A stretch of 53,998 nucleotides of DNA from a virus (taxonomy: Duplodnaviria; Heunggongvirae; Uroviricota; Caudoviricetes), in IMG/VR virus record IMGVR_UViG_2541047728_000014. One strand, 5' to 3'. The position numbers and the translations under genes are program-made. Below are positions 28,028 to 28,856 of this stretch, one piece after another. How positions within the stretch are numbered: the stretch's first letter is position 1; the number at the start of each line of letters is the position of its first letter. The notes beneath the pieces were generated by a model. It was not told the origin of the DNA, searched no databases, and saw only the letters and a list, made by a program, of their open reading frames with translations.

Positions 28028-28096
28028 ATGTTTACTTTTCTGTTAGGCGTATTTGTTGGCATAGCTGCCGCTGTGATCTTGATATACGGACATTGA
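28028..28096 (+). CDS. Micro-ORF A of tandem array: single hydrophobic helix peptide (22 aa)
   Basis: MFTFLLGVFVGIAAAVILIYGH; AGAGGG RBS; starts 2 nt after the upstream stop. Confidence 0.35.
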   Translation: MFTFLLGVFVGIAAAVILIYGH

Positions 28097-28100
28097 TATT

Positions 28101-28205
28101 ATGGATGCTTACATCATCGCCGGATTAATCGGCGTTTCTGTGTTTCTTGTGGGTTCTATTATAGTTGCGCTGATAAACGTATATATCAAGTATTTGGTGG
28201 GGTGA
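28101..28205 (+). CDS. Micro-ORF B: single hydrophobic helix peptide (34 aa)
   Basis: MDAYIIAGLIGVSVFLVGSIIVALINVYIKYLVG. Confidence 0.35.
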   Translation: MDAYIIAGLIGVSVFLVGSIIVALINVYIKYLVG

Positions 28206-28210
28206 AAAAT

Positions 28211-28285
28211 ATGATTGACCCGCTAATTATCCTTTCTGTCTGCGTCGCTGTATGGCTGGCGATCATGATACTCATTGAAAGCTGA
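28211..28285 (+). CDS. Micro-ORF C: single hydrophobic helix peptide (24 aa)
   Basis: MIDPLIILSVCVAVWLAIMILIES; GGGGTGA RBS. Confidence 0.35.
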   Translation: MIDPLIILSVCVAVWLAIMILIES

Positions 28286-28296
28286 AGGTATTCACC

Positions 28297-28371
28297 ATGA
28301 ATATTTACGATCTCATCTGGTGGTCGTTGGTCGCCGTCATTATCTGTTTCTGGTGGAAGAATGTTGTATAG
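28297..28371 (+). CDS. Micro-ORF D: single hydrophobic helix peptide (24 aa)
   Basis: MNIYDLIWWSLVAVIICFWWKNVV; GAAGG RBS. Confidence 0.35.
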   Translation: MNIYDLIWWSLVAVIICFWWKNVV

Positions 28372-28379
28372 GTGACGGC

Positions 28380-28487
28380 ATGGATATATTCGAATTACTG
28401 GCGATTATGTGCGGGATGATGTTTTGCGTAGTAGCCGTAATTATCATCATTGGTCTGGTTATAGGTAGTGTCAATGAACGCATATGA
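28380..28487 (+). CDS. Micro-ORF E: single hydrophobic helix peptide (35 aa)
   Basis: MDIFELLAIMCGMMFCVVAVIIIIGLVIGSVNERI; AGGTGA RBS; same frame and stop as track ORF 28275..28487. Confidence 0.4.
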   Translation: MDIFELLAIMCGMMFCVVAVIIIIGLVIGSVNERI

Positions 28488-28488
28488 G

Positions 28489-28554
28489 ATGCTATTGCTG
28501 GTGGCTGTAGTTGTGGTTATTGCTGTGGACGTATACCGGGAGATGAAAAAATGA
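28489..28554 (+). CDS. Micro-ORF F: hydrophobic peptide (21 aa)
   Basis: MLLLVAVVVVIAVDVYREMKK; starts 2 nt after the E stop. Confidence 0.3.
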   Translation: MLLLVAVVVVIAVDVYREMKK

Positions 28555-28619
28555 AATGGCTTGATTTCTTTTTCCTGATCGTTGCGATTGTTTTTACCAT
28601 GATCGCGTTAACTCAATAG
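28551..28619 (+). CDS. Micro-ORF G: single hydrophobic helix peptide (22 aa)
   Basis: MKWLDFFFLIVAIVFTMIALTQ; GGGAG RBS; ATG overlaps the F stop (ATGA). Confidence 0.35.
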   Translation: MKWLDFFFLIVAIVFTMIALTQ

Positions 28620-28627
28620 GTGAACGC

Positions 28628-28702
28628 ATGAATGCTATTGATATTATGTTGATCGTGTGTACCGTTGCGTTAATTATTATTGGGGTGATTATCAACGTCT
28701 GA
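28628..28702 (+). CDS. Micro-ORF H: single hydrophobic helix peptide (24 aa)
   Basis: MNAIDIMLIVCTVALIIIGVIINV; AGGTGA RBS identical to that of E. Confidence 0.35.
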   Translation: MNAIDIMLIVCTVALIIIGVIINV

Positions 28703-28718
28703 CAGTGACTTCTTAATT

Positions 28719-28763
28719 ATGGCTATATGCACGTTGTTAGTCGTTATCGTTTTCTTCGCATAA
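28719..28763 (+). CDS. Micro-ORF I: very short hydrophobic peptide (14 aa)
   Basis: MAICTLLVVIVFFA; weak RBS; least convincing member. Confidence 0.2.
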   Translation: MAICTLLVVIVFFA

Positions 28764-28772
28764 AGGTAAACA

Positions 28773-28856
28773 ATGAAAGAGCTGTTCGACTGGTTGGAAG
28801 TTTTAACATACTGCGCAAGTTTTGTAGCTTGCGTATATATCATCAATAAATATTGA
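28773..28856 (+). CDS. Micro-ORF J: single hydrophobic helix peptide (27 aa)
   Basis: MKELFDWLEVLTYCASFVACVYIINKY; AAAGGT RBS; ends 10 nt before the small terminase start. Confidence 0.35.
   Translation: MKELFDWLEVLTYCASFVACVYIINKY

Follow-up and report, generated by a model that had tools for sequence, protein, structure and literature searches.

Small membrane proteins that consist of a single helix, such as YohP, MgrB, AcrZ, and CydX, are well known (PMC12648545) and work by binding to components of the membrane or perturbing them (PMC12648545; PMC12719787). Hydrophobic intergenic small open reading frames (ORFs) under selection are also abundant in Enterobacteriaceae (PMC11188072). Here, we describe a tandem array of ten hydrophobic micro-ORFs at positions 28028–28856 on the + strand of the phage sequence IMGVR_UViG_2541047728_000014 (53,998 nucleotides [nt]; "the window" denotes this whole stretch). 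The window is an mEp021-like (mEpimmI) temperate coliphage, and the mEpimmI group comprises Nus-dependent, non-lambdoid coliphages (PMC11893012). The array peptides share with the known small membrane proteins a length of 50 amino acids (aa) or less, one hydrophobic helix, and the lack of a catalytic domain, and they have the same hydropathy and hydrophobic moment values as YohP. The known proteins, however, are chromosomal, mostly solitary or encoded in the operon of their partner, and stress regulated, whereas the array consists of ten tandem genes (3–12 in relatives) in a phage late block. No homology to the MgrB, AcrZ, CydX, or YohP families was detected, with no Pfam or NCBIfam match passing any cutoff. 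We found no description of a fixed-order phage array of 3–12 single-helix genes (20–47 aa), and the array goes unmentioned in the paper that defines the mEpimmI group (PMC11893012).

Several other systems resemble the array in part. Type I toxins (Ibs/Sib, Ldr/Rdl, TisB, and Hok) are similar in size and hydrophobicity, target the inner membrane, and are in some cases repeated or carried on prophages; they also have their own promoter, a long structured 5′ untranslated region (UTR), and a cognate antisense RNA, whereas the array is operonic, with no promoter found and no Rfam match. A preliminary description of this DNA had named type I toxins as one possible identity, but beyond small hydrophobic peptides (<60 aa) the type I toxin-antitoxin architecture is absent, with neither an own promoter nor a long 5′ UTR. 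Holins, antiholins, and lysis accessory proteins (lambda S, phage 21 S68, T4 RI, P2 LysA, and Mu releasin gp25) are late inner-membrane proteins encoded near endolysin genes, some with a single transmembrane domain (TMD) (PMC9239132). They are 60–220 aa long and have charged cytoplasmic or periplasmic domains, whereas the array peptides are 22–35 aa with C-tails of 0–9 residues (net charge −1 to +1), and their genes do not adjoin the endolysin gene. The array peptides lack a charged hydrophilic C-terminal domain, have no Pfam or PHROG holin match at E ≤ 1, and are not the sole membrane-lesion candidate adjoining the endolysin; a PF16080-type holin gene sits directly upstream of it.

The coat proteins of filamentous phages (Ff g7p, g9p, and g8p, and Pf3) are tiny single helices whose acidic N-tail is outside and whose basic C-tail is inside, as predicted for the array peptides, and are encoded by tandem overlapping or coupled cistrons. 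They are virion components, whereas the array belongs to a tailed siphovirus whose structural module is of the standard kind, and the two share no sequence similarity. Staphylococcal psm-alpha operons and multi-peptide leaderless bacteriocin operons also consist of tandem 20–35-codon ORFs, each with its own Shine-Dalgarno (SD) sequence, but their peptides are amphipathic, cationic, and secreted; the array peptides are uniformly hydrophobic, with a hydrophobic moment (muH) of 0.06–0.21 versus 0.53 for PSM-alpha3 and a net charge of −2 to 0. Finally, morons, anti-CRISPR genes, and accessory islands have in common with the array the presence or absence of conserved small genes at a fixed junction, low GC content, exchange with unrelated phages, and homing endonucleases nearby. 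The array deviates in base composition and varies by presence and absence of units (46 content variants), but it lacks its own flanking promoter and terminator, its members are all single-helix peptides that are partly paralogous, and no anti-defense homology was found.

Coding evidence for the micro-ORFs

All ten ORFs listed in the preliminary description were found on the + strand, in the 841-bp interval between the stop codon of a 190-aa ORF with an HExxH motif (28025) and the start of the gene for the small terminase subunit, TerS (28867). The array had been placed between the lysis cassette and the terminase; TerS does follow it, but its immediate upstream neighbor is the HExxH ORF, and the lysis cassette ends at 27184. 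The region 27400–29400 is 85%–89% identical to seven GenBank phages (MagusPhagus, mEp010, mEp554, mEp044, mEp013, mEp021, and mEp515). Of 5426 complete E. coli genomes, 35 have it in a prophage, and in one of these, 2017C-4173W12, the array is 100% identical.

Comparison was made across 72 homologous loci (7 GenBank phages, 16 E. coli prophages, 47 IMG/VR contigs, and 1 ENA metagenome contig). The IMG/VR contigs were found via the upstream protein, and that of the ENA contig is just 59% identical. The array was present at 72/72 loci, as 61 unique sequences. In these unique arrays, 556 of 568 family instances retained an intact canonical ATG-to-stop frame, three others use an upstream start, and nine were flagged as broken, several of which probably start at GTG, TTG, or ATT. 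Clear disruptions number approximately 3/568: the J ORF of the window (ATG to ACG), an internal stop in E of locus L010, and a frameshift in D of locus L039. The preliminary description had named frameshifts or stops in relatives as the result that would refute it; this was not the pattern seen, and the outcome therefore strongly supports coding.

The pooled in-frame ratio of nonsynonymous to synonymous substitution (dN/dS, omega) was 0.31 (264 synonymous and 303 nonsynonymous changes; synonymous excess, P = 4e-40), compared with 0.88 and 1.23 in the sense control frames and 1.02, 0.43 (the wobble-sharing frame), and 1.26 in the antisense frames. Each window family was individually below 0.55 (range 0.17–0.53), and the same method gave 0.14 for TerS and 0.18 for the upstream 190-aa gene. 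At hydrophobic-consensus positions, 163 of 169 replacements (97%) were membrane compatible, with polar, charged, or Pro replacements at 3.6% versus the 19.7% expected from random single-base changes (P = 6e-10). A nucleotide-level count of variable sites against 70 loci was saturated and added nothing beyond the codon-alignment test. These data strongly support the view that the micro-ORFs are genuine single-pass membrane micropeptide genes, as the preliminary description had suggested from ribosome-binding sites and packing, and they show that the frames are maintained by purifying selection.

The packing of the ORFs was compared with 1000 dinucleotide-preserving shuffles of 28026–28866, counting hydrophobic ATG-initiated ORFs of at least 14 codons and SD-like motifs 4–16 nt upstream. 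The ten ORFs cover 89% of the interval, a value reached by 0/1000 shuffles (mean 32%, maximum 82%), and an SD-like motif precedes nine of the ten, again reached by 0/1000 (mean 0.7, maximum 4). This bears out the earlier statement that most of the ORFs have an SD sequence. No hydrophobic ORF was found on the minus strand of the same interval. Spacers in the cistron chain are 2, 4, 5, 11, 8, 8, 9, and 10 nt. Two ATGA overlaps had been described, but only one is present, between F and H (4 nt, 28551–28554); E and F overlap by 14 nt, and I and J by 8 nt. The stop codons of B, D, and H sit within the following SD sequence, GGGGTGA once and ATAGGTGA twice. The resulting stop-SD-start junction motif, ATAGGTGAnnGCATGnAT, was the sole repeat returned by a DNA repeat search. 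A repeat-based pac site or regulatory element was rejected, there being no tandem or inverted DNA repeats beyond these junctions, and an Rfam scan of 26500–29500 gave sub-threshold chance matches only. From the short spacers, the overlaps, and the stop codons within SD sequences, we infer that the micro-ORFs are translated as a coupled chain running from the HExxH gene through K to TerS.

The array opens with micro-ORF A (28028..28096, +; 22 aa, MFTFLLGVFVGIAAAVILIYGH; omega 0.53; 30 unique arrays have it intact), whose SD sequence lies inside the 3′ end of the 190-aa ORF. B (28101..28205, +; 34 aa, MDAYIIAGLIGVSVFLVGSIIVALINVYIKYLVG; omega 0.46) is intact in 53 arrays, and C (28211..28285, +; 24 aa, MIDPLIILSVCVAVWLAIMILIES; omega 0.17), which has an alternative GTG start at 28202, in 58/61. 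A lipoprotein reading of family C was rejected on inspection: the LSAC motif is preceded by just seven residues and an acidic residue, and the window has LSVC. D (28297..28371, +; 24 aa, MNIYDLIWWSLVAVIICFWWKNVV; omega 0.40) has Trp belts at both helix ends and is followed by E (28380..28487, +; 35 aa, MDIFELLAIMCGMMFCVVAVIIIIGLVIGSVNERI; omega 0.26). The sixth ORF had been given an MLLLV start, which is internal; the true ATG of F (28474..28554, +; 26 aa, MNAYEMLLLVAVVVVIAVDVYREMKK; omega 0.17) is at 28474 and yields MNAYEMLLLV. F is intact in 59 arrays, and the MNAYEM start is kept in 59/59 relatives. H (28551..28619, +; 22 aa, MKWLDFFFLIVAIVFTMIALTQ; omega 0.18), joined to F by the ATGA overlap, is paralogous to families G and G2, and I follows (28628..28702, +; 24 aa, MNAIDIMLIVCTVALIIIGVIINV; omega 0.35). 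The ninth ORF, described as a 14-codon gene, is the C-terminal remnant of family J, whose start codon was lost in this lineage. The full family J peptide has 22 aa (MSDxDFLI...), and the window (28695..28763, +) has ACG at 28695–28697 where relatives have ATG; the sole remaining ATG is internal, at 28719, and gives the 14-aa MAICTLLVVIVFFA (28719–28763). The same ACG occurs in loci L025 and L028. K (28773..28856, +; 27 aa, MKELFDWLEVLTYCASFVACVYIINKY; omega 0.34) closes the array and was present in 23 of the first 24 loci. An overlapping 40-aa ORF at 28727–28849, in the frame used by family G2 elsewhere, was discarded; it shows no sign of selection, with an out-of-frame omega of approximately 0.9–1.2.

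The array region is 39.5% GC and 37% T, compared with 46% GC for the window and 48.9% and 48.6% for the flanking genes; this T-rich composition is expected from codons with T in the second position. Uncharged cores span 13–26 residues in the window peptides and 13–30 across all families. For the best 18-residue segments of the ten peptides, the Eisenberg mean hydrophobicity was 0.64–0.95 at the low muH values given above. Both measures put all ten in the transmembrane class, in agreement with the one hydrophobic helix each that had been proposed. The profile is like those of YohP and IbsC and unlike that of amphipathic PSM-alpha3. Of 18 families, 14 have an N-tail with a net charge of −1 or −2, and eight have a net positive C-tail (for example, KNVV, REMKK, and NKY); under the positive-inside rule, an N-out/C-in topology is predicted.

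None of the window peptides significantly matched Pfam, PHROGs, NCBIfam, or PADLOC, and the earlier remark that the array was of no recognized kind stands. Among the array families, shuffle-calibrated alignment gave the highest z scores for G and G2 (8.5), F and B2 (8.3), and H and G (6.6), and z ≥ 4 for J-G2, H-G2, D-F, F-I, B-A3, I-B2, E-L, and F-L. The proposed paralogy is supported for G-G2, F-B2, H-G, D-F, F-I, and B-A3 but is not shown for all families, and part of the signal is shared architecture rather than descent. Specific motifs are conserved, including the Trp belts of D and the AGLIG motif of B. No peptide was similar to the resident holin (z ≤ 2.2). Scores against Rz, a protein with an N-terminal TMD, were marginal, with z up to 3.2, and were judged not meaningful.

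The array is an annotation blind spot. RefSeq PGAP calls no gene in the gap in most genomes, and the 840–1100 bp gap is almost wholly unannotated in the 35 complete E. coli genomes; some micro-ORFs, or mis-framed fusions of them, do appear as hypothetical proteins in phage records based on PHANOTATE. In a collection of 15 billion proteins, only B and L (47 aa, not in the window) were present, and eight of the nine intact window peptides are absent from it. B was found there on 174 contigs, where it is labeled as a hypothetical protein or a putative membrane protein. Searched in full with phmmer against 1.84 billion cluster representatives, it matched only two clusters, both of the same family. 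Standard pipelines therefore miss approximately 10% of the genes in a common gut coliphage group.

Unit content and distribution of the array

Unique arrays contain 3–12 units (median 10) drawn from approximately 20 peptide families. The window has families A, B, C, D, E, F, H, I, J, and K and lacks A2–A5, B2, D2, G, G2, and L; C, F, H, and K are nearly universal. Among the 61 unique arrays, there are 46 distinct family combinations or orders, and no family pair ever occurs in both orders. This fixed relative order indicates that variation proceeds by presence or absence of whole units on a fixed scaffold, and indels take out entire ORF units. Unit number also differs among isolates, with 5 in mEp021, 10 in mEp010, and 12 in MagusPhagus.

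The array always adjoins TerS or a small ORF, X, that precedes TerS. The same array is found before TerS proteins of 161, 166, 171, 175, and 208 aa, and two different terminase types accompany it in prophages, which points to a mosaic boundary at this junction. A non-hydrophobic, acidic ORF of 47–48 aa, MNDEELKIADEIRKALDSAENNETIYLSEQEVEKMMNEFKLRFGKDN, lies between the array and TerS (161 or 171 aa) in 4 of the 16 E. coli prophage loci (L012 1942–2085, L013 2053–2196, L018 1878–2024, and L021 2249–2392) and is called hypothetical by PGAP. HNH endonuclease genes are inserted in some relatives (mEp013, L006 2033–2518; L073 2752–3273). One separates the HExxH gene from the array, and another separates the lysozyme gene from Rz; insertion at differing points marks this stretch as a hotspot of recombination or insertion.

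A degenerate-pattern scan for family C across 2.9 million IMG/VR contigs found only contigs that also carry the HExxH gene (gp49), and nothing pointed to the array beyond this phage group. Family A2, which is not in the window, is the single exception to this lineage restriction. It is 70%–73% identical over 30 aa to an ORF in approximately 90 lytic rV5-like Vequintavirus genomes. In phage rV5, the homolog (MTMIASILTFMGGVAFGFIVCLFIVIMSMRG, 29–31 aa; NC_011041 96248–96343; L072 2498–2593) is unannotated and stands alone in a gap among unrelated small genes. This homology between temperate mEpimmI phages and lytic rV5-like myoviruses implies the horizontal movement of a single micro-gene.

Flanking genes and probable late transcription

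Upstream of the array, the window encodes a 66-aa class II holin (26033..26233, +) with two hydrophobic segments, which is annotated as a holin in a homologous prophage and has a homolog that matches PF16080 (Phage_holin_2_3). It is followed by a lysozyme-type endolysin (26235..26726, +; PF00959) with a Gly/Ala-rich N-terminal segment that looks like a signal-anchor-release (SAR) domain, and by the Rz i-spanin (26714..27184, +; PF03245), with an embedded Rz1-like lipoprotein ORF in the +1 frame. Given the SAR-like endolysin N terminus, the lysis system is probably a holin or pinholin with a SAR endolysin and Rz/Rz1. After Rz come a non-coding gap of 270 nt, which holds an annotated terminator in mEp021, and the 190-aa gene, placing the array approximately 840 nt downstream of Rz.

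The 190-aa HExxH ORF (27453..28025, +) is a homolog of mEp021 gp49 and matches only phrog_1365 (unknown function). It has invariant H79-E80-x-x-H83 and E106 residues, a zincin-like signature, and a conserved basic C-tail, KKGKRKPKAKEALVPRVMSFKRG. A 59%-identical homolog is labeled PolyVal metallopeptidase in nr, and this class of domain has been tied to phage-host conflict (PMC5512222). A PDB sequence search with the HExxH protein found nothing, and its AlphaFold2 model, built from a 17-sequence alignment, was unusable (predicted local distance difference test [pLDDT] 43). On the other side of the array, the Sf6-type TerS (28867..29352, +; PF20901, E = 1.4e-37) has its SD sequence, GAGAGGTGA, in the 10-nt spacer after K. 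The ORF after the large terminase (window 30961–32352) is labeled "anti-CBASS protein Acb1 family protein" in RefSeq NZ_CP030768 (L008 5571–5951); the equivalent gene is a portal in the mEp021 record and in Pfam (PF06381), and NCBIfam gave no match for the window protein.

Promoter-like sites occur at 25432 and 25624 and are followed by a strong terminator-like hairpin at 25990–26008, just upstream of the holin gene, an arrangement (25432–26008) that resembles the pR′-tR′ late control of lambda. No + strand promoter-like site was found between 25651 and 29600, and the array is therefore presumably read from the late transcript, which would cover the holin, SAR-type endolysin, Rz/Rz1, HExxH protein, array, and terminase genes. 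Within ORFs B and D, there are just two terminator-like hairpins, both weak. On the minus strand, three promoter-like hits fell at 28474, 28716, and 28705; the total count of promoter-like hits was 6, below the shuffle expectation of 8.7. Relatives that carry the other E allele do not conserve the antisense TTGACA at 28474–28469.

Candidate functions of the peptides

The array is best explained as a set of genuine micro-genes in the accessory, cassette-like part of mEp021-like (mEpimmI) genomes, and the peptides presumably enter the inner membrane with the acidic N-tail facing outward and the neutral or basic C-tail facing inward. As to mechanism, we tentatively favor, at somewhat less than even chances, the view that the peptides act individually as transmembrane-helix binders of inner-membrane proteins of the host or a rival phage. 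Each would act singly, not within one obligate complex, with its helix bound to one such protein, for example an entry or uptake channel or a membrane-anchored defense effector, which would make the array a shuffled arsenal for membrane-level conflict. That unit number varies four-fold and that A2 has a solitary homolog in rV5-like phages both suggest that units work individually. The link to conflict is drawn from the low GC content, the junction position, the variation in content around conserved members, and the conflict-associated neighbor. A more specific version, a combinatorial arsenal in which each 22–35-aa peptide docks on and neutralizes a particular inner-membrane protein, such as a rival DNA-entry channel or an abortive-infection effector, seems rather unlikely as it stands. 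If true, the locus would be a membrane-embedded counterpart of anti-defense islands, evolving as whole units are gained and lost and as single micro-genes are exchanged, with lytic rV5-like phages among the partners.

Several points weigh against helix binders that serve in conflict. A late-operon position with no promoter of its own is unusual for superinfection exclusion in lysogens, and the families are conserved internally rather than diversifying (omega approximately 0.17 for C, F, and H). Scans of PHROGs, Pfam, NCBIfam, and PADLOC gave no resemblance to known exclusion, defense, or anti-defense proteins. Several cores (13–17 residues) are short for a bilayer-spanning helix, the predicted topology derives solely from the positive-inside rule, and the poorly modeled HExxH protein is linked to the array by adjacency only.

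The main rival to this mechanism, possible but on balance doubtful, is that the peptides tune lysis, altering membrane energization or contacting the two-TMD holin or the SAR domain of the endolysin and thereby setting holin triggering and endolysin release. The array sits in the same co-directional late block as the holin, endolysin, and Rz/Rz1 genes, and the SAR-like N terminus of the endolysin means that lysis should respond to membrane potential. Precedents exist in the 27-aa E. coli YohP, which lowers membrane potential (PMC12719787) and whose type of hydropathy profile the array peptides match, and in Mu gp25, a single-TMD protein that controls SAR endolysin release (PMC9239132). The window already has a full set of canonical lysis genes, however, and these are separated from the array by the terminator-bearing gap and the HExxH gene; 5–12 partly redundant units seem too many for a timer, the peptides bear no likeness to holin TMDs, and the A2 homolog in rV5-like phages is not beside recognizable lysis genes. 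A different proposal would leave the peptides themselves mattering little: the chain of cistrons would couple translation or tether the late mRNA by transertion, setting the level or location of terminase. The unbroken coupling from the HExxH gene through K to TerS (spacers of 2–11 nt, overlaps of 4–14 nt), the recurrent junction motif, and the constant adjacency to TerS or ORF X would all fit, but purifying selection acts on the amino-acid sequence of each family, specific motifs are kept in D and B, array length varies four-fold with no obvious compensation, and the same array precedes different TerS types, making this account improbable.

Membrane poisons of the Ibs, Ldr, or TisB class, used for prophage addiction or host shut-off, are more improbable still. 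The E. coli ibs and ldr loci are themselves repeated, and the array peptides are similar to IbsC-type toxins in size and hydrophobicity. Type I toxin loci are also known on prophages (PMC12648545). The micro-ORFs are nevertheless only 2–11 nt apart and have no individual promoters or 5′ UTRs, the antisense promoter-like hits are within chance and include the unconserved TTGACA, and no Rfam match was found. That the ORFs are chance products of a T-rich spacer, or overlie a pac or regulatory DNA element, is hardly credible. AT-rich intergenic DNA does tend to give hydrophobic ORFs (PMC11188072), PGAP leaves the gap without genes in most genomes, and peptides of <30 aa are absent from the 15-billion-protein collection, but this explanation is contradicted by the shuffle test, frame conservation, dN/dS, and hydrophobicity-preserving substitutions, as well as by the lack of repeats beyond the SD junctions and by indels that remove whole units. 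A further, fairly small share of the probability lies with functions outside these candidates.

The interest of the array is that it is genetically tractable and largely invisible to annotation. The 46 natural variants with 3–12 units amount to a natural experiment, and isolates can be cultured on E. coli K-12. If the peptides are specific membrane-protein binders or lysis-timing modulators, the array would be a compact source of transmembrane-helix ligands and would help to explain the role of very small hydrophobic phage proteins.

Hydrophobic micro-ORFs were also observed in other parts of the window. A single 33-aa ORF lies at 7367–7468 (−), and a second tandem pair with SD motifs is located in the early region, at 12412–12525 (+; 37 aa, MSFAKIAALAAAVAIAALYLSLSLYITVAIIKLITTM) and 12533–12655 (+; 40 aa, MRVSKDIVTVAFCVICFLFAVVFCGALAAVISFIGKGVML).

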